Assembly: GCA_965652795.1 (NCBI GenBank)
Contig: CBFGXJ010000005.1
Location: 25 to 64,024 of the forward strand
DNA from: an uncultured bacterium
GTDB taxonomy: Bacteria > Patescibacteriota > Saccharimonadia > Saccharimonadales > UBA4665
DNA: 64,000 nt
Direction: 5' to 3'
The notes beneath the pieces were generated by a model. It searched no databases and was not told the DNA's origin. It saw only the letters and a list, made by a program, of their open reading frames with translations. A program made the translations under genes and the position numbers. Shown here one piece after another: positions 49,580-64,000 of this stretch (positions are counted from its first letter, which is position 1; every line of letters begins with the position of its first letter).

Positions 49580-50152
49580 ATGTCTTACCCGTTCCACACT
49601 GAGCCCGCGGTAACGCCCACCTTTTTCCCGTTTACACGGGAAACGAAGGAACGTTTAGTCCGCAGCACAATAGACAGTGACCCAGCATTTGCGATTAGAC
49701 AGCACCATATGCTGCTTAATCGTGACAACGGCATAATGGCGCGGATCATCTTCGATACCGAACTTCTCATGCTGCATGAAGGCGCCGTCAGTACGCAGAC
49801 CCATACCCGAGGGGCTCTTTTTACGTATGCCATCCTGAATGCGGAAGGCCCGCTGCAGCCATTGCCGGTTATGAGCCCAGATGCTGCCCGCACGTTGCAG
49901 GATCGCCATATATTCATGGGAGCTCCCATGCCAGAGGATGACGGTCCGGCCGATCCCAATGTTTTGAACATTTTGGAGGATGTGTATAAACCTTACCTGG
50001 AGGCCGAGCCTGACATGAGCGAACTGCTTGAACGCCGCTCGTACCGAACCGGCAACCCCCGCTTTTACCTTCTGGGCGGCGCAGCGACGGTGGCATGCCT
50101 GCGTGTAGCTGCTCTTGATGAAGGCCGCGAGCCGCCCAGCCAGCCCGTCTAA
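49580..50152 (+). CDS. hypothetical protein Q1 (190 aa), paralog of Q2
   Basis: The C-terminal half aligns with ORF 50193..50741 (YLEAEPDMSELLERRSYRTGNPRFYLLGGAATVACLRVAAL vs FLAAEPGIQERMAEIAAYRTDRNAFMVGAAVVVAAARLSLL). Confidence 0.65.
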   Translation: MSYPFHTEPAVTPTFFPFTRETKERLVRSTIDSDPAFAIRQHHMLLNRDNGIMARIIFDTELLMLHEGAVSTQTHTRGALFTYAILNAEGPLQPLPVMSPDAARTLQDRHIFMGAPMPEDDGPADPNVLNILEDVYKPYLEAEPDMSELLERRSYRTGNPRFYLLGGAATVACLRVAALDEGREPPSQPV

Positions 50153-50192: not shown

Positions 50193-50741
50193 ATGAACAC
50201 CCTACCGGACCCCGAGCACAGCACGTACCGGCTAGGGGCCTTATTTCCGCTCGACTCCTACCAGACAGGGTTGACGCTTGAACGCGTACGCGCGGATGCC
50301 GCAAAGACCCTGTATAACGAAATCGATTATATTGGCGCCCACAACGTTCCGCTTAGTAACGTGTTAAGGCACCAGTCGTCGCGCATGCCGGCGCATGCTC
50401 ACACCGGCCACTATAACGGTGCGGCTCTCAGCCATATACTCATTCGGCAGGCTGCTATGCGCCCGATGGTACGTCTACATGGCAAAGCCCTTGAACTGCT
50501 GATCGGCCTTTCCGGCCCTGCGATTAGCCCCGGCCGCGTCCACAACAAGAACAGCCAGGGTCTGGCCTCGAATATACGCCACATGCATGAAGCGCTCATA
50601 CCCTTTTTAGCGGCAGAGCCGGGCATACAGGAGCGTATGGCAGAAATAGCAGCCTACAGAACCGATAGAAACGCTTTTATGGTGGGCGCGGCCGTCGTTG
50701 TGGCCGCGGCCCGCTTGAGCCTTTTGGCGCGTGACGACTAA
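50193..50741 (+). CDS. hypothetical protein Q2 (182 aa), paralog of Q1
   Basis: See Q1. TACAAT (50181..50186) plus 6 nt upstream of the ATG. Confidence 0.65.
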   Translation: MNTLPDPEHSTYRLGALFPLDSYQTGLTLERVRADAAKTLYNEIDYIGAHNVPLSNVLRHQSSRMPAHAHTGHYNGAALSHILIRQAAMRPMVRLHGKALELLIGLSGPAISPGRVHNKNSQGLASNIRHMHEALIPFLAAEPGIQERMAEIAAYRTDRNAFMVGAAVVVAAARLSLLARDD

Positions 50742-54727: not shown

Positions 54728-55696
54728 TTACTGCTCGTTGCTATTCTCGGGTTTAGCTTTTGGGTTCCGTCTAATGACCGTCTTAAAGCCCTCCCTATAC
54801 TCTTTCACGCCGCGGTATAACCGCGAGATAGCATTTCCAACGATCTTGATGTCTTCCTGGGATGCTTCACTGCGGGGCTTGCAATACGCCTTAATCAGAC
54901 GATCAGTCAGATAAGGCCGTCTTTCCATGTCGCTATGCTTGGCTGCATTGTTAACATTCTTGAGCCTCAGTGATGATATTATTGCCAGCTCACCCACCGG
55001 CACCACCAAAGTGCCCCAATGCTCACCCGCCCCCGTGACATGCGACTCGCATACGGTTATAGGGATCAGCCTGGCCTGCGATCTAATGCCATAGAGATGA
55101 TAATGCGTCATAAGGCCCTCACGGTAATCAGCGTCCTGCACACTGGCAGGCGCCGGAAAGGCGGCGATATCCGCCTCCGATCTACGGTTAGCCAAGCCGA
55201 GCACCAATGCCTCGTGCGTCTTCTGCCGAACCAAGTCATCCAACTGGCTGACAGTATTTGAGCCCTTCGTAAAGTCACTGATTACATCGATCACTTTCCT
55301 GGCCGTACCAGACTTGGCCGGATGAGGGGCATACCTGTCATTTCCCAACTGAACCGGGTCTAAGGACTCGCCCCGCGCAAGCGTTTCTACTATTCCCCAA
55401 GCTGCAGTCGTTAAACGGGCATCCAGCCAGTGCACGTCGCGGGCGGCGCGCAGCTCTGGGTTGGCTACATTCCGGTCCAGTACTGTCTTTGCGAAGGGTA
55501 CGGCCGCCTCGGTATCGGGTGAAGGTACTTTCTGCAGTACGTCACTTATAACGCGCCAGGCGCCTGTTTGGATGTCCTGCGGGCTGGCCGCAGGGTCACG
55601 GGCGAGATCGGGTAAATATGCATATCGTTCCGCTAGTGGTTGTATCATTGAAGCAGTATACCACTTGCAGGCAAAGTCAGGCATATCCGCCCGCAT
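54728..55696 (-). CDS. hypothetical protein (orphan, 322 aa), lower GC
   Basis: ATG at 55694..55696 has SD AGGAG 8 nt upstream. The longer ORF-track start would overlap the divergent ABC exporter gene. No motif recognised. Confidence 0.65.
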   Translation of the reverse strand: MRADMPDFACKWYTASMIQPLAERYAYLPDLARDPAASPQDIQTGAWRVISDVLQKVPSPDTEAAVPFAKTVLDRNVANPELRAARDVHWLDARLTTAAWGIVETLARGESLDPVQLGNDRYAPHPAKSGTARKVIDVISDFTKGSNTVSQLDDLVRQKTHEALVLGLANRRSEADIAAFPAPASVQDADYREGLMTHYHLYGIRSQARLIPITVCESHVTGAGEHWGTLVVPVGELAIISSLRLKNVNNAAKHSDMERRPYLTDRLIKAYCKPRSEASQEDIKIVGNAISRLYRGVKEYREGFKTVIRRNPKAKPENSNEQ

Positions 55697-57667: not shown

Positions 57668-58369
57668 TTACGCCTTGTCGCTGGCTTTGTCGGCCTCGCC
57701 TGAATCGGCTGCGGCGGCTTCGGCATCGGCTTCAGCGGTTTCTTCGGCGCTGGCATCTGTATCGACGGCGTCACCGCCGGCCGCATCGTTCGCTGCCGCC
57801 AAGGCGCTGGGCTCAAAGACGGTCGCCAAGACATGCTCGGGCTCGGCCTTAACCGTTACACCGCTCGGCACGGTCAAATCGGCAACGGTGGCTTGGTCGC
57901 CTACCGCTACCAATTTCTCGCCGCTGAAGGTCAAGGCGTCCGGCAAGTCGCGCGGCAGCGCCTCAACCTCTACCGACTCCAGCTGGTGCAGCACGATCAA
58001 ACCGGCGCGTTCAGCCGGACTGGCGTCGTTACCTTCGTCGTAGACGACATGCACCGGCACCTCCGCCGTAACCGGCTGATTGGCCTTAACGGCGTTAAAG
58101 ACGATGTGTGTCAACTTGTTTTTCTTCGGGTCGAAGGTCGCCTGCTTGATAAGTGCCGTGTAAGTGTGACCGCCGGCCTTCAAGCTGACTGGGTGGTGCT
58201 TACCGGCTTCGCGGTATACCCTGTACAGCTCGTTATACGGCGCCATTACGACGATCGACGCCTTGCCGTGGTCATGAATTACTGCCGGCACCTGGCCCTC
58301 GGCCCGCAGGCGCTTGACAGCCTTACCGGTTACATCACGTGTTGCAAGTTCTAGAAGTACCTTATCCAT
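57668..58369 (-). CDS. rplY: 50S ribosomal protein L25/general stress protein Ctc (Ala/Asp/Glu-rich tail)
   Basis: LRAEGQVPAVIHDHGKASIVV...HPVSLKAGGHTYTALIKQATFDP is the L25/Ctc two-domain pattern. Confidence 0.9.
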   Translation of the reverse strand: MDKVLLELATRDVTGKAVKRLRAEGQVPAVIHDHGKASIVVMAPYNELYRVYREAGKHHPVSLKAGGHTYTALIKQATFDPKKNKLTHIVFNAVKANQPVTAEVPVHVVYDEGNDASPAERAGLIVLHQLESVEVEALPRDLPDALTFSGEKLVAVGDQATVADLTVPSGVTVKAEPEHVLATVFEPSALAAANDAAGGDAVDTDASAEETAEADAEAAAADSGEADKASDKA

Positions 58370-58450: not shown

Positions 58451-58478
58451 TTTACAAAGACTAAAAGAATGGTACTAT
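58451..58478 (+). promoter_or_regulatory. promoter of P1 (TTTACA-16-TGGTACTAT), leaderless geometry
   Basis: -35 at 58451..58456 and extended -10 at 58470..58478. The ATG at 58487 is 8 nt downstream. The ORF-track ATG at 58469 lies inside the promoter. Confidence 0.55.
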
Positions 58479-58486
58479 ACATCATT

Positions 58487-59068
58487 ATGTCTGCACCCTT
58501 TCCCGGGCCTTACCTCCGTCCTCACGAACTTACGAATCTAACCGCCGCTTATACTCGCCCTGATTATATTCAAGCTTGTCGATTAGGCTTGTTGGTCAAC
58601 CGGCATCTTGAGCTTGCCAACCGCGACGAACGGATGTGGAGCGCAACTATAGACCCACAGGATCGACAATGGGATCCCCTTACGTTGGCCACGCCTAACG
58701 TTAAGATAGCCCCAACCTGGGATGCCTACCTTCAGTTCCACGTGCCCTCACACTTTGACCATCTTATGAGAACTGCCGAGTGGCTGCCCAAGGCCGATCT
58801 GCTCGTCCTCAGGCTTGGCGGGTTCGCCACCGAGATTCCCGAATCCATGGAAGGCTACACCGTAGATCCCATAACGTGGGCGGAAGTCTATTGCCAAAAA
58901 TCTCCGCAGCGCATCGACTCCGATGCGGATTTAAAAGACACCTCGCCACCCTATGCTGCATTCCATAATAACGGCGCCGGCTTGAAGAAAGCCCAAACCG
59001 AAACCGTCATCAGCATTCTAGGGCTCATGGCCCGTGCCTACGCCGCCCAGGACCAGGCCGGGGCCTAG
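58487..59068 (+). CDS. hypothetical protein P1 (193 aa), P-family paralog
   Basis: Aligns end to end with P4 and more weakly with P2 and P3 (see findings). Confidence 0.7.
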   Translation: MSAPFPGPYLRPHELTNLTAAYTRPDYIQACRLGLLVNRHLELANRDERMWSATIDPQDRQWDPLTLATPNVKIAPTWDAYLQFHVPSHFDHLMRTAEWLPKADLLVLRLGGFATEIPESMEGYTVDPITWAEVYCQKSPQRIDSDADLKDTSPPYAAFHNNGAGLKKAQTETVISILGLMARAYAAQDQAGA

Positions 59069-59130
59069 CTACATTTTTGCCGCATATCAAAAACGTTGGT
59101 ATAGTTATTACATTATTTTCCGGAGCAACC

Positions 59131-59751
59131 ATGCAGCATCTCACATCCCAAAATGCCGACTTAATCTGGAACACTCTGCCGCACTTTGTGCCCGAAGCAT
59201 ACTCGGATACTGATCCGCTGCGGCCGCGCCGGCTGTGGACAGTCATCGGCCGCCATACCATGCTGGCAAACAATTACCCGCATATGCGGCAATCTGCTAC
59301 CGATGATGAAGACGGACTGCGCTACTCTGATGCAATGCCGGAAGTCGTACTGGGCGACACGACAAGCGCCGTACTTGAGTTCGTCGCGCCGGAGGCCGCC
59401 CAGGAGCTAGAAGGCAGCCGGCACTGGCTGCGCGCCGCCGACAGCATAAATCTGACATTATTCGACTATGAGCAGCCCCTCTCATTGCCGCGCGGGGCCA
59501 TCATTACACGGGACCACAACGCGCCTGCCCGGGGCCAACAAGCACTTACTGTACGTTGTGCCCGCATGCTGCTGTCCGGCCTTTCGATTGGCGGCCCGCA
59601 ATCAGCAAATCTGCCAACAATCGGCCGCTTATACCACGCCCACTATGAAGACGGTACGCTGCTCAATCCCCGCAATGCCGAACAAGTTATCGGTGCACTG
59701 CAGCTGATGGCTGCGGCTTACCAAAAGGATATTGACAAACACGCAACATAG
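59131..59751 (+). CDS. hypothetical protein P2 (206 aa), P-family paralog
   Basis: ATG at 59131 with SD GGAG. TGGTATAGT box at 59097..59105. Family blocks RHTMLANNYPHM and AEQVIGALQLMAAAY. Confidence 0.65.
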   Translation: MQHLTSQNADLIWNTLPHFVPEAYSDTDPLRPRRLWTVIGRHTMLANNYPHMRQSATDDEDGLRYSDAMPEVVLGDTTSAVLEFVAPEAAQELEGSRHWLRAADSINLTLFDYEQPLSLPRGAIITRDHNAPARGQQALTVRCARMLLSGLSIGGPQSANLPTIGRLYHAHYEDGTLLNPRNAEQVIGALQLMAAAYQKDIDKHAT

Positions 59752-59767
59752 AAAGGAGTACTAAAAA

Positions 59768-60346
59768 ATGGCTTCAGAACAATATTTTTCCGAGCATCTA
59801 CTCAGAGAACTAATCAGCTCTGATGATAGCTGGCAGGGCCAATATCGCCAGGCCCAACGGCTAGGTAGCCAGGTTACGCGGATACTTAATAGCCTAAACC
59901 AAGATCCAGCAGCCTGGAAGTCCGAATACGTGAATGCCGATACCTCTGAATACGCGGGACAGGAAAGAACCTTTAAGGTGGCACCGCGCATAACCGCTAG
60001 CCTCGTGCCCTTTGTACTTGCCGATCACTCGTTACTGGCAGGTACGCCCGCTTGGCTCGCTGAAACGCATGAGATTACATTTACTCTCAGCCAGTACCAG
60101 CATGTCGTGCCCGATGACCTTACTGCATTCAGCGTAGACCCCCAGCACGAAACGCACCTCCTTTTGAGGCCGTTAGACCACACTAGCACCAGCGCCGTTC
60201 CTCCGGCCATTCCGGAGAAGCCGTATGTGGTCATATATGAAAACGAAATGGGCCTCAGGCCCGAATATACCGAAGTAGTCATTGGCACACTAGCCTGTAT
60301 TGCCGACCAAATGATCACCGCCCCGCCAACCGGCCAAAAGGGCTAG
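59768..60346 (+). CDS. hypothetical protein P3 (192 aa), P-family paralog
   Basis: SD AAAGGAG. Family blocks FKVAPRI...TPAWLAETHEITFTLSQY and TEVVIGTLACIADQM. Confidence 0.65.
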   Translation: MASEQYFSEHLLRELISSDDSWQGQYRQAQRLGSQVTRILNSLNQDPAAWKSEYVNADTSEYAGQERTFKVAPRITASLVPFVLADHSLLAGTPAWLAETHEITFTLSQYQHVVPDDLTAFSVDPQHETHLLLRPLDHTSTSAVPPAIPEKPYVVIYENEMGLRPEYTEVVIGTLACIADQMITAPPTGQKG

Positions 60347-60381
60347 ACGCCGCCAGCCAAACAAGGTAGGCTATAAGGGAT

Positions 60382-61071
60382 ATGCTAGATGTTACCGGAT
60401 GGCTTGAGGGCGCGAGCGTCCTCACTGGACTCTTGATACTTGGCGCGATCGTCTTTGCCGAGTCGGGCTTGTTGGTCGGCTTCTTTTTGCCTGGTGATAC
60501 GCTGTTATTTACGGCTGGCTTCTTTGCTGCGCAGGGTAAGCTGCCAATTGCGCTGGTCCTGCTGGTGATCTTCGTGGCAGCCGTGGTGGGCGATAATGTC
60601 GGCTACACCATCGGCCGGCGAATGGGTCCGCGCCTGTTCCGCAAAAAAGACGGTATTCTCTTCCGCCAGGCATATGTGGCCCGCGCCGAGGAATTCTATG
60701 AAAAACACGGCGGCAAAACCATTATCCTAGCCCGCTTTATCCCTGTCGTGCGCACCTTCGCGCCGCTGGTTGCCGGCGTGGGCAAGATGCCGCGGGCGCG
60801 CTTCACCTTCTACAACTTCTTGGGGGCCTTCATTTGGACCTTCGGTGTCGTATTATTGGGCTACTTTTTGGGCAGTCTGGTCGACCCGCACACGGTTGAG
60901 AAATATCTGCTGCTGGCAATCGGCCTGGCAATGCTTATTACGGTCGGTCCAGCCGTGTACCATCTGATTATGGAGCCGCGCGTCCGGCGTTTCGTCGTTA
61001 ACCAGTTCCGGCGTTTGGCCGGCAAAAAGCCGCTGCCGCAAGAATCGTCAGACCCGACTCCCAAGCCGTAA
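60382..61071 (+). CDS. dedA: DedA family membrane protein
   Basis: GFFLPGDTLLFTAGFFA, GRF.PVVRTFAP and G.F.W are DedA/SNARE-associated motifs. Confidence 0.9.
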   Translation: MLDVTGWLEGASVLTGLLILGAIVFAESGLLVGFFLPGDTLLFTAGFFAAQGKLPIALVLLVIFVAAVVGDNVGYTIGRRMGPRLFRKKDGILFRQAYVARAEEFYEKHGGKTIILARFIPVVRTFAPLVAGVGKMPRARFTFYNFLGAFIWTFGVVLLGYFLGSLVDPHTVEKYLLLAIGLAMLITVGPAVYHLIMEPRVRRFVVNQFRRLAGKKPLPQESSDPTPKP

Positions 61072-61097
61072 TCCGGACGTATGCAAAGCAGCTCCCT

Positions 61098-61712
61098 ATG
61101 CATTCTCGTTCTGCCGACCCATTTCTACGCAATAATTTGCTTGTCGACCTAGCATCGGCTACCAATACACACAATGAACACCAGGCACGTGAGCTGGGTA
61201 AGGTTGTACGGCGGCACGTACTACTAGCAAATCAACATACCGACATGTGGGTTCCCACAGGCGCCCAAGACCCTGAGCTGTGGCAGAATTTGACAAGCAG
61301 TACCCCATACGTAAAAGTAGCGCCCAAGTGGGAAGGATACCTGCAGTTCAGCGTGGCAGGGACTTTTAATTATCTTCAGCGTACCCCGGCCTGGTTGCCG
61401 AAGTCTGACATACTTTTACTACGGCTTAGCGGCTTTGAAAGCGACATACCCGAAGATACGAGTAGCTTCTGGGAAGAGCCGACTCGGGCAACAGAGGTCT
61501 ACTGCATGCGCTCCCCGAACCGACTTGATTCCGACCCTGATGCGCGGGTCCAGCCGCCGCCGCACACGGCGTTCAACGAAGAAGGTACGGCCTTGACCAA
61601 CGACCAAACCCGTACCGTTATAGATATCCTTCGTCTCATGGCCGACCGCTATGAGCATGGATCTACTAACACTACACCGCCGGACGGACCACGCCTTAGA
61701 ATCGTCCAGTAA
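61098..61712 (+). CDS. hypothetical protein P4 (204 aa), P-family paralog
   Basis: VKVAPKWEGYLQFSVAGTFNYLQRTPAWLPKSDILLLRLSGFESDIPE aligns with P1 VKIAPTWDAYLQFHVPSHFDHLMRTAEWLPKADLLVLRLGGFATEIPE. Confidence 0.7.
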   Translation: MHSRSADPFLRNNLLVDLASATNTHNEHQARELGKVVRRHVLLANQHTDMWVPTGAQDPELWQNLTSSTPYVKVAPKWEGYLQFSVAGTFNYLQRTPAWLPKSDILLLRLSGFESDIPEDTSSFWEEPTRATEVYCMRSPNRLDSDPDARVQPPPHTAFNEEGTALTNDQTRTVIDILRLMADRYEHGSTNTTPPDGPRLRIVQ

Positions 61713-61731
61713 CCCGAACGCATGCAGCCGA

Positions 61732-64000
61732 TTACAGCATGCGCTTCAGGAACTGGCCGGTGTACGAATCTTTGACTTTGGCAATCTCTTCCGGCGTGCC
61801 GGTAGCCATTACCGTGCCGCCGCCCGAGCCGCCCTCCGGCCCCATGTCGATGATGTGATCGGCCGATTTGATCACGTCCAGGTTATGCTCAATCACCACC
61901 ATGCTGTTGCCGGTGTCGACCAGGGCGTGCAGCACGTGCAGCAGCTTGTCGACGTCGGCCATGTGCAGGCCGGTCGTAGGTTCATCCAAAATGTAGAGCG
62001 TGCGGCCGGTCGGCCGGCGCGACAGTTCCGATGCCAGCTTAACCCGCTGCGCTTCACCGCCAGACAGCTGCGTTGCGGGCTGGCCAAGCGTAATGTACCC
62101 GAGGCCGACGTCAACCATCGTTTGCAATTTGCGCGCAATCGATGGAATGCTGCCAAAGAACTCCAGCGCTTGCTCGCAGGTCATTTGCAGCACATCGCTG
62201 ATCGTCTTTCCTTTGTAATGAATCTCAAGCGCTTCGCGGTTGTAGCGCTGGCCGTGACAGACCTCGCAGGGTACGTACACGTCCGGTAAAAAGTGCATTT
62301 CGATCTTGATGATGCCGTCGCCGGCGCAGTTCTCGCACCGTCCGCCCTTTACGTTAAAGCTGAAGCGCCCGGGGCTGTAGCCGCGCAGGCGTGCCTCAGG
62401 CGTTTGGGCGAACAGCTCGCGAATGGGCGTAAACAAGCCAATGTACGTCGCCGGGTTGGAGCGCGGCGTGCGGCCGATCGGCGACTGGTCGATAATGATC
62501 GCTTTGTCGAGCTGCTTGATGCCCTCGATGTCATCGTGCTTGCCGGGTACAGTGTTGGCGCGCATCAGCCGGGCCTGGAGTTCCTTAGCCAGAATATCAT
62601 TGATCAAAGAGGATTTGCCCGAACCGGACACGCCCGACACCACCACCAATTGCGCCAGCGGGATCTCAACGTCAACATTCTTAAGGTTGTGTTCGCGGGC
62701 GCCGCGGATCACCAGCTTCTTGCCGCTGCCCTTCCGACGCTTCTTGGGTACGGCAATCATCTTGCGTCCGGATAAATACGCGCCCGTTACACTGTCTTTG
62801 TTGCCCGCAACTTCGGCTGGTGTGCCATGCGCCACCACATTGCCGCCGTGCACGCCGGCGCCAGGGCCGATGTCCAGGAGGTAATCCGCCGTGCGGATGG
62901 TGTCTTCGTCGTGCTCCACCACTAGCACGGTGTTGCCGAGGTCGCGCAAGTGCTTGAGTGTACGGATCAGCCGGTCGTTATCGCGCTGGTGCAGCCCAAT
63001 CGACGGCTCGTCCAGCACGTACAACACGCCCTGCAAGCCGGAGCCGATCTGCGTCGCCAGCCGGATGCGCTGCGCCTCGCCGCCGCTCAACGTCGTGGCC
63101 GAACGCAAGAGCGTCAAGTAATTCAGCCCGACATCGCGCAAGAAGCCGAGACGCGCGCAAATTTCCTTTAAAATCTGCTGCGCGATATGCAGCTCTTTGT
63201 CGGTAAAATCAAGGCTGTTGAAGTACTCGATAGCTTCGTCGATCGACAGCTCACAGATGTCCATGATCGACATGTCGCCGACGGTCACAGCCAAAACTTC
63301 AGGCTTCAGGCGGCGGCCTTTACAGGCGTAACACGGCTTTTCCTGCATGAAGCGCTCAATGTCGTGCCGGATGAAATCGCTGTCGGTCTCTTTATGGCGG
63401 CGCTCGAGGTTGGGGATGACGCCTTCGTAGGTCGTTTCAAACGAGCGGCCCAGTCCGAGCGACACTCTATACTTCTCGTTACCGGTGCCATACAGCAGCT
63501 TGTTCAGTTGGTCTGGCGTCAGCTCGCCGGTCGGCACATGCAGCGAAAAGCCGTAGCGCTCGGCTACCGCCGCCATTTTCTTCATATACCAGGCATCGAC
63601 ATTAACGCGGTTGAAGGGGCGGATGGCACCTTCGGCAACGGTTAAACGGCCGTTCGGAATCACTAGCTCCGGGTCGACCTCCAGCCGTGAACCCAGGCCG
63701 GTACAAACCGGGCAAGCGCCGTGCGGCGAGTTAAAACTGAATGTGCGCGGCTCAAGCTCAGGAATCGCCACGTCCGGGTGGTCGATGCAGGCGTACATCA
63801 GGCTGTACTGGAACTCTTCGTTCGCATCGGCATTCACCACCCGCATTTTGCCCTCGGCGACTTCCAGGGCTTGCTCGGCTGATTGCGCCAGGCGCGAGCG
63901 CGAATCTTCGTCGTTTACCAGACGGTCGATCACGACTTCGATGGTGTGCTTATAATTTTTATCGAGCGCCGGGAATTCGTCGAGCGCATACACGACGCCG
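61732..64000 (-). CDS. uvrA: excinuclease ABC subunit A (partial, N-terminus beyond window end)
   Basis: Two ABC modules (GVSGSGKSS, LSGGEAQR x2, LYVLDEPS/LYILDEPT) and zinc-finger Cys clusters (CPVCTGLG, CENCAGDG...CEVCHG). The ORF is open to the window edge. Confidence 0.97.
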   Translation of the reverse strand, partial: GVVYALDEFPALDKNYKHTIEVVIDRLVNDEDSRSRLAQSAEQALEVAEGKMRVVNADANEEFQYSLMYACIDHPDVAIPELEPRTFSFNSPHGACPVCTGLGSRLEVDPELVIPNGRLTVAEGAIRPFNRVNVDAWYMKKMAAVAERYGFSLHVPTGELTPDQLNKLLYGTGNEKYRVSLGLGRSFETTYEGVIPNLERRHKETDSDFIRHDIERFMQEKPCYACKGRRLKPEVLAVTVGDMSIMDICELSIDEAIEYFNSLDFTDKELHIAQQILKEICARLGFLRDVGLNYLTLLRSATTLSGGEAQRIRLATQIGSGLQGVLYVLDEPSIGLHQRDNDRLIRTLKHLRDLGNTVLVVEHDEDTIRTADYLLDIGPGAGVHGGNVVAHGTPAEVAGNKDSVTGAYLSGRKMIAVPKKRRKGSGKKLVIRGAREHNLKNVDVEIPLAQLVVVSGVSGSGKSSLINDILAKELQARLMRANTVPGKHDDIEGIKQLDKAIIIDQSPIGRTPRSNPATYIGLFTPIRELFAQTPEARLRGYSPGRFSFNVKGGRCENCAGDGIIKIEMHFLPDVYVPCEVCHGQRYNREALEIHYKGKTISDVLQMTCEQALEFFGSIPSIARKLQTMVDVGLGYITLGQPATQLSGGEAQRVKLASELSRRPTGRTLYILDEPTTGLHMADVDKLLHVLHALVDTGNSMVVIEHNLDVIKSADHIIDMGPEGGSGGGTVMATGTPEEIAKVKDSYTGQFLKRML

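Follow-up and report, generated by a model that had tools for sequence, protein, structure and literature searches.

What are the four small, diverged proteins whose genes surround dedA in an uncultured member of the Saccharimonadales (lineage UBA4665)? The stretch of DNA in question, referred to here as the window, comprises 64,000 nucleotides of contig CBFGXJ010000005.1 (GenBank assembly GCA_965652795.1). Between the conserved genes rplY and uvrA it holds five intact open reading frames (ORFs) on the plus strand, namely P1, P2, P3, dedA and P4. An earlier note, made from the letters of the DNA, had described P1 to P4 as paralogs of an unrecognised family of cytosolic proteins. Our analysis identifies P1 to P4 as real genes and true homologues, and we tentatively presume, with a probability of about 0.35, that they encode non-enzymatic binding proteins acting in biological conflict.

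P1 and P4 share 46% identity over 178 residues (BLASTP, E 2e-53). The other pairwise comparisons gave E-values of 7e-10 (P1-P2), 1e-10 (P1-P3), 9e-11 (P4-P3) and 3e-7 (P4-P2), and merely 0.005 for P2-P3. A profile built from relatives outside the window alone recovered all four proteins with E-values, scaled to 1.84e9 sequences, of 4.7e-30 (P3), 3.7e-29 (P1), 9.6e-29 (P4) and 5.3e-17 (P2), and the four are therefore true homologues, as the earlier note had claimed also for P2 and P3. The ORFs and the interposed dedA lie where that note had placed them, and all peptide blocks it quoted occur in the translations; the sequences were right, but their attribution to P2 and P3 was loose in two of its lists. 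In a neighbour-joining tree the only supported grouping is that of P1 and P4 as sisters (100% bootstrap), while P2 and P3 branch deep and the deeper branching order lacks support. In addition, P2 is extended by 14 residues inserted into the loop that follows strand 105-112 (numbered as in P1).

The only informative search for further homologues was an exhaustive one with a hidden Markov model (HMM) of the family among 1.84e9 proteins, which returned 33 representatives at E<=1e-3. Four of these are the proteins of the window itself and one is a spurious repeat protein, leaving about 28-29 clusters. Nearly all of them contain 1-3 member sequences and all originate from metagenome-derived contigs; one member is located on a contig of 1.04 Mb, a size resembling that of the candidate phyla radiation. 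Word-indexed searches, whether with P1 or with the 32-sequence alignment, yielded almost nothing, and no relative was detected among the GTDB species representatives using an alignment of P1 and P4. A Pfam scan of P1-P4 and of all 32 members revealed nothing above threshold, P1-P4 had no match in NCBIfam, and no antitoxin domain was found in either database. None of the four paralogs matched PADLOC at E<=1 and there was no match in PHROGs, while the sequences of the PDB, searched with both profiles, produced noise only (methionyl-tRNA synthetase, E 0.1; a von Willebrand factor A protein, E 0.19). Likewise, no family relative was found in the IMG/VR viral contigs with two pattern sets, in the INPHARED phages by tblastn with P4 or in the PLSDB plasmids by tblastn with the family member P0006. 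Between the other contigs carrying family members and either the window or the Saccharibacteria loci described below there was no useful overlap in genes.

The AlphaFold2 model derived from the 32-sequence alignment had a predicted local distance difference test (pLDDT) score of 86.9 and a predicted template modelling (pTM) score of 0.82, with all five models at pLDDT values of at least 82.7. The predicted fold consists of an N-terminal helix region (helices 12-19 and 27-44), an antiparallel sheet of 5-6 strands (72-75, 78-85, 105-112, 130-138 and 156-159) and a long C-terminal helix (168-192). Foldseek found no neighbour at E<=1e-3 in the PDB (best E 0.27, TM-score <=0.31) or in BFVD (best E 0.39). 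Matches to the proteasome, START and BamC were inspected and dismissed as weak, with TM-scores <=0.31. The family, which the earlier note had rightly taken to be undescribed, is thus considered new and without detectable relatives, and its fold is provisionally regarded as new in comparison with the PDB and BFVD. The term categorically new would apply to the family and the fold in this sense, not to the mechanism.

The only invariant residue is W99, and the conserved columns are nearly all hydrophobic, glycine or proline. The family alignment contains no conserved histidine, cysteine, serine or lysine column, and its best acidic column is 69% conserved and not kept in P1. Conservation is highest in helix 27-44 and in the strand-turn-helix segment 156-183, whereas variation is greatest, and most gaps occur, at the N-terminus, in the C-terminal tail and in loops 45-71 and 139-155; loop 113-129, the site of the P2 insertion, is less variable. 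All 32 members are acidic (pI 4.0-6.1, net charge -2 to -21) and 170-215 amino acids (aa) in size, the four copies of the window having net charges of -6 to -12. A signal peptide was not found in P1-P4, nor was a segment of transmembrane-level hydrophobicity (the maximal Kyte-Doolittle mean over 19 residues being 1.29), in agreement with what the earlier note had read from the translations. The lack of conserved residues of catalytic type together with the conserved hydrophobic core suggests a non-enzymatic binder, and the proteins are probably acidic, cytosolic scaffolds or binders rather than enzymes.

The UvrA fragment encoded in the window is 77-88% identical to UvrA of metagenome-assembled genomes assigned to Candidatus Saccharibacteria or Saccharimonadales, and synteny was compared across 23 Saccharibacteria-type uvrA loci (+/-10 kb). 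The family HMM found no member in any of the 23. A dedA match is located beside uvrA in 20 of these loci, 17 of which also hold rplY, and genes for an ABC transporter and a rhodanese are present in most loci with enough sequence. The dedA orthologues, which are 43-65% identical and occupy the same position in most related loci (33% in one), have uvrA and rplY as their immediate neighbours. About 14 relatives show divergent transcription of dedA and rplY, which are separated by approximately 67-195 bp; the corresponding interval of the window measures 2.0 kb and contains P1-P3. P4 occupies the gap between uvrA and dedA, which in the relatives ranges from 45 bp to 6 kb and holds assorted small ORFs on either strand. 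Since the uvrA-dedA-rplY arrangement is kept in the relatives without a family member, the array is, judging from this synteny, a lineage-specific insertion flanking a resident dedA and not a conserved module. The single-copy positional conservation that would be expected of a Saccharibacteria housekeeping family was not observed, which bears out the earlier description of the genes as accessory. The block of rplY, dedA and uvrA is a clear case of a slot with changing gene content in a reduced genome.

Around the array, scars of an insertion and repeats of mobile elements were looked for, but only short chance repeats and no mobile-element genes were found. The P genes have a GC content of 53-58%, that of their neighbours being 57.5-60.5% and the mean of the window 57.1 +/- 4.3%. 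The contrast of 50% versus 60% given in the earlier note was therefore overstated, and the clearer drop is seen at third codon positions (GC3), with 55-62% in the P genes versus 70-76% in their neighbours.

A functional link between the P genes and dedA was considered and rejected, as no other family member was found near a gene encoding a VTT domain, and dedA is regarded as a bystander. The small ORFs in the uvrA-dedA slot of the relatives were likewise dismissed as cryptic family members (hhalign probabilities <=0.8%). Examples of such ORFs, from the slots compared in L007-L029, are located at L008 12812-13429, L011 8430-9047, L018 12804-13346 and L021 7630-8304; judging from their translations, those of L011 and L018 may be related to each other.

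Insight into the evolution of the family came from another lineage, in which the alleles P0007 and P0008 (L087 1885-2590 versus L006 1067-1729) have a protein identity of only 37% and a DNA identity of about 45%. On either side the flanking DNA is 86% identical, with 92% protein identity for the neighbouring DsbA and 90% for the downstream gene, and the drop in identity is sharply bounded at the family gene. The flanking genes have non-synonymous (dN) and synonymous (dS) divergences of 0.04-0.05 and 0.54-0.73, respectively, whereas the family gene has a dN of 0.55, a saturated dS of about 2.3 and a dN/dS ratio of approximately 0.24. The dS of the family gene lies far above that of its flanks, and the alleles accordingly predate the flanks by far. 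The pattern indicates either that recombination has replaced old alleles or paralogs or that a polymorphism has persisted for long, in both cases under overall purifying selection, and would not correspond to simple runaway divergence. The earlier characterisation of the family as fast-diverging accordingly calls for refinement: allelic divergence is deep in this one lineage, but the raised dS speaks for the swapping of old alleles or paralogs rather than for simple rapid change in situ. A fragment of an IS1595-family transposase gene (L087 35-640) was noticed 1.3 kb from the divergent cassette.

Several samples contributed the 13 public contigs on which P4 occurs. Seven of them were retrieved; their identity to the window is 99.8-100%, and the gene order agrees as far as each contig reaches. 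In a further strain, L100, a comparison with the window over 12.9 kb yielded nine differences, eight of which fall within the last 100 bp of P4 (6 non-synonymous, 2 synonymous; binomial P about 2e-10), with the ninth single-nucleotide polymorphism (SNP) just downstream of P4. The sole difference between the window and L001 falls in P1. The tract at 61617-61717, with eight to nine SNPs in both L100 and L101, covers the 3' end of P4 and the spacer between P4 and uvrA in genomes that otherwise scarcely differ, and it may represent a short recombination import.

The window holds only the four family copies P1-P4. Two distant members outside it, P0025 and P0030, share their sources with P1-P4, including the longest source contig of 244,119 bp. 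A profile excluding both scores them at 5.5e-22 and 1.8e-7, respectively. Given the shared contig and the bona fide membership of both proteins, this genome therefore probably contains six paralogs, which would amount to roughly one-fifth of the diversity known in the family.

The rarity of the family, its confidently predicted fold without neighbours, its accessory insertion, the divergent alleles within conserved flanks, the concentration of SNPs in the P genes, the lower GC3, the acidity and the absence of catalytic residues are the reasons for our proposal of binding proteins that act in conflict. According to this proposal old duplicates would have been inserted, in this lineage only, on either side of dedA. 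The conserved hydrophobic core and the C-terminal helix would carry variable loops, by means of which each paralog would recognise a different protein target. Such targets may be incoming toxins, which would be neutralised in the manner of orphan immunity proteins, or the paralogs may counter other forms of attack on the epibiont by its host or by competitors. Our confidence is low for binding as the activity, for conflict as the context and for toxins as the targets. The proteins have the generic traits of immunity proteins, being small, acidic, cytosolic and devoid of a catalytic motif with diverged tandem copies, though these traits are not diagnostic. The immunity, antitoxin or anti-defence function considered in the earlier note is regarded as a conjecture.

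Saccharibacteria, like other Patescibacteria, live as epibionts attached to bacterial cells, and to our knowledge no counter-measure of such an epibiont to attack by its host has been described. A multi-copy, accessory and allelically hyperdiverse family with a confidently predicted fold would be a concrete and cheap candidate for one. Actinomycetota hosts were found to restrict Saccharibacteria with an Esx-secreted effector, and counter-measures of the epibionts were anticipated (2026 preprint, PMC13622651). That work lends the proposal ecological plausibility but is not evidence on the P family. In a more specific form of the proposal, which we regard as unlikely, the paralogs would constitute a "polyimmunity" set based on a new fold, with each paralog neutralising a different effector of hosts or competitors, for instance Esx/type VII substrates of Actinomycetota, and with new specificities swapped among strains as cassettes flanked by conserved DNA. 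If this is true, Patescibacteria would have their first described counter-defence module.

Several observations speak against a role in conflict. No other contig retrieved as DNA carries more than one family member, so that the terms "array" and "system" used in the earlier note apply to this genome and not to the family elsewhere. Across approximately 12 independent contexts no toxin, secretion gene or other partner recurs, and the neighbours vary, comprising a divergent DsbA with a downstream membrane protein, YebC, Band_7, a glyoxalase and an NYN-domain gene. Orphan immunity genes are normally recognised by a homologue beside a toxin in the genome of an attacker, and no homologue was found beside a toxin in a larger attacker genome. 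Searches for Imm, SUKH/SMI1_KNR4 and DUF600/EsaG families gave no significant match, the best being Imm27 with P3 only (E 0.27, 11.6 bits versus a cut-off of 27.3). Furthermore, the orthologous pair P0006/P0014 diverges no faster than its flank, and cassette-like behaviour is therefore not universal in the family. Rarity alone is weak proof as well, since lineage-specific hypothetical families are common in Patescibacteria.

In none of these neighbourhoods does a toxin-domain gene adjoin the family gene; the nearest candidates encode an NYN domain (L091, about 600 bp upstream) and Fic (L003, at a distance of 3.6 kb). In the window no toxin, nuclease or secretion gene adjoins the array, just as the earlier note had reported, and a type II toxin-antitoxin system is not indicated either, as neither a toxin partner nor an antitoxin domain was found. 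One further neighbourhood contains a weak sub-threshold match to PadR-like proteins together with a small membrane protein, and another a 169-aa protein of the type known from the candidate phyla radiation, without a Pfam match, which is encoded 3' of rplJ-rplL.

The P genes might also represent an ordinary lineage-specific cytosolic family, for instance of adaptors, chaperones or endogenous regulators, that was duplicated by chance under relaxed constraint in a recombination-prone slot beside dedA and takes no part in conflict. This explanation appears possible, if somewhat doubtful. It agrees with the absence of a conserved partner or toxin from every context, with the mostly housekeeping neighbours, with the purifying selection implied by the long-term dN/dS of about 0.24 and with the general variability of the uvrA-dedA gap, which is filled with unrelated small ORFs in the relatives. 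Against it stand the patchy and very rare occurrence, the absence from the nearest relatives, the retention of probably six intact paralogs in a reduced genome, the 37%-identical alleles within flanks that are 86% identical in DNA, and the clustering of strain SNPs in P4. That the four ORFs are merely decaying or non-functional duplicates, or spurious ORFs that have remained open by chance, seems scarcely credible. The strong divergence of P2 with its insertion, the GC3 below that of the neighbours and the truncation of P1 by the gene callers could be cited in its favour, yet the four ORFs are undisrupted, vary little or not at all among the fetched contigs that span them (of 13 carrying P4, from several samples), match the independent family profile over their full length, belong to a family with a confidently predicted fold and are preceded by promoter and Shine-Dalgarno signals.

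Two other explanations were considered. Proteins that leave the cell via a non-classical route, such as type IV secretion or a machinery associated with type IV pili, or through lysis, could act on or in the bacterial host, with paralogs that track host variation. A hypervariable, accessory and multi-copy family in an obligate epibiont lineage would fit this idea, as would the variable and probably disordered C-terminal tails and the SNP tract in the tail of P4. Nevertheless, we consider export to be improbable, taking into account the absence of a signal peptide and of transmembrane segments, the lack of adjoining secretion genes, and the acidic globular fold with its conserved C-terminal helix and no recognisable secretion signal. 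Alternatively, the proteins may act as acidic mimics of nucleic acids or other anti-restriction or anti-defence proteins similar to Ocr and ArdA, shielding DNA or blocking a nuclease, as might be suggested by the strongly negative net charge of most members (-2 to -21) in small, cytosolic proteins without conserved catalytic residues. This seems very unlikely, since the family was not found in the phage, viral-contig or plasmid collections and had no match in PHROGs or PADLOC, the four copies of the window are only mildly acidic (-6 to -12), and no fold similarity to known mimics was detected in the PDB. Binding in a context of conflict thus remains the explanation that we favour for P1-P4.

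The features of the locus are compiled in the following table.

Features of the rplY-uvrA interval, in window positions
Feature	Position	Strand	Description	Evidence
rplY	57668..58369	-	L25/Ctc; left conserved flank	
Promoter-like site 5' of P1	58451..58478	+	TTTACA, 16 nt, TG-extended TACTAT	promoter scan
P1	58487..59068	+	193 aa, pI 5.4; sister of P4	ORF list, BLASTP, family HMM
Promoter-like site 5' of P2	59077..59105	+	TTGCCG, 17 nt, TG-extended TATAGT	promoter scan
P2	59131..59751	+	206 aa; most divergent copy	independent HMM, E 5.3e-17
P3	59768..60346	+	192 aa, pI 4.8	independent HMM, E 4.7e-30
dedA	60382..61071	+	VTT-domain membrane protein between P3 and P4, outside the P family	PF09335, E 5.5e-22
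P4	61098..61712	+	204 aa; converges on uvrA	ORF list, BLASTP versus P1
uvrA	61732..63993	-	right conserved flank; continues past the window end	

The two promoter-like sites combine a TG-extended -10 site with a plausible -35 hexamer, consistent with the earlier proposal that P1 and P2 possess promoters of their own. Between the end of the P1 -10 site and the ATG at 58487 there are 8 nt, suggesting a leaderless or near-leaderless mRNA; an alternative ATG at 58469 falls within the promoter. P2 has a GGAG motif 5 nt before its ATG at 59131. P3 starts 16 nt after the P2 stop codon, is preceded by a strong Shine-Dalgarno sequence (AAAGGAG at 59752-59758) and is probably co-transcribed with P2. In view of this Shine-Dalgarno sequence and of the start of P4 at 26 nt after the dedA stop codon, P2, P3, dedA and P4 therefore probably form a single transcription unit.

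In the public gene calls (L001, L093-L098) P1 begins at an internal methionine and comprises 127 aa, and the 66 P1 codons 5' of the called start can be aligned to both P4 and the family profile. The truncation is probably due to a leaderless start that lacks a Shine-Dalgarno sequence. The motif TGGTAnnnT, corresponding to a TG-extended -10 site, occurs 43 times in the window versus 17 times expected. Judging from their coordinates, several of these sites lie just 5' of ORF starts, and the motif appears to be the usual promoter form of this genome.

Apart from the P genes, the window contains two adjacent ORFs of 190 and 182 aa (49580-50152 and 50193-50741) without a Pfam match; they display no detectable paralogy (E 0.012) and are not matched by the P-family HMM. 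An unrelated pair of tandem hypothetical paralogs with 38% identity (E 1e-35) is encoded in L091 (4987-5565 and 5582-6175), 4 kb upstream of a family member, and tandem paralogs of uncharacterised proteins may be common in these genomes. A gene on the minus strand at 54728-55696, predicted to encode a hypothetical protein of 322 aa without a Pfam match, holds all 20 differences found over 8.9 kb in a comparison with L093 (8 non-synonymous, 12 synonymous) and represents another locally diversified or recombined gene.

Known polyimmunity and orphan-immunity arrays include the tandem EsaG/DUF600 genes beside the nuclease EssD of the type VII secretion system in Staphylococcus, SUKH/Imm arrays and the acquired interbacterial defence clusters of Bacteroidales. 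The P proteins resemble them in being small, acidic and cytosolic, in the absence of enzymatic motifs and in the presence of tandem, deeply diverged copies. The accessory and patchy occurrence and the divergent alleles in conserved flanks are further similarities, to which the Esx effectors fired by the hosts of epibionts may be added (PMC13622651). Unlike these arrays, the P family shows no similarity to Imm, SUKH or DUF600, lacks an adjoining toxin in its approximately 12 contexts as well as a recombinase or mobile-element frame, has no homologues beside toxins and is multi-copy in this genome only.

With regard to structure, the predicted antiparallel sheet packed on a long C-terminal helix is reminiscent of the helix-grip or SRPBCC folds (START, Bet v 1 and the C-terminal domain of BamC), and START and the BamC C-terminal domain were among the top, non-significant Foldseek matches of the model. 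However, the Foldseek values (E >=0.27, TM-score <=0.31) and the Pfam scan do not place the family in this superfamily, and the order of elements differs, with two N-terminal helices preceding the sheet in the P model. The likeness to Ocr and ArdA consists in strongly acidic, small, cytosolic proteins without catalytic residues, whereas the P genes are chromosomal in Saccharibacteria-type contigs, were not found in phages or plasmids and share neither structural nor sequence similarity with these mimics. Finally, in being known solely from metagenome contigs, unannotated and narrow in distribution, the family resembles the FESNov families (PMC10849945) and the AGNOSTOS "unknowns" (PMC9132574), which are catalogues and not functional classes. 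Even if the function of P1-P4 should turn out to be mundane, they would contribute a new entry to the catalogues of protein families and folds.

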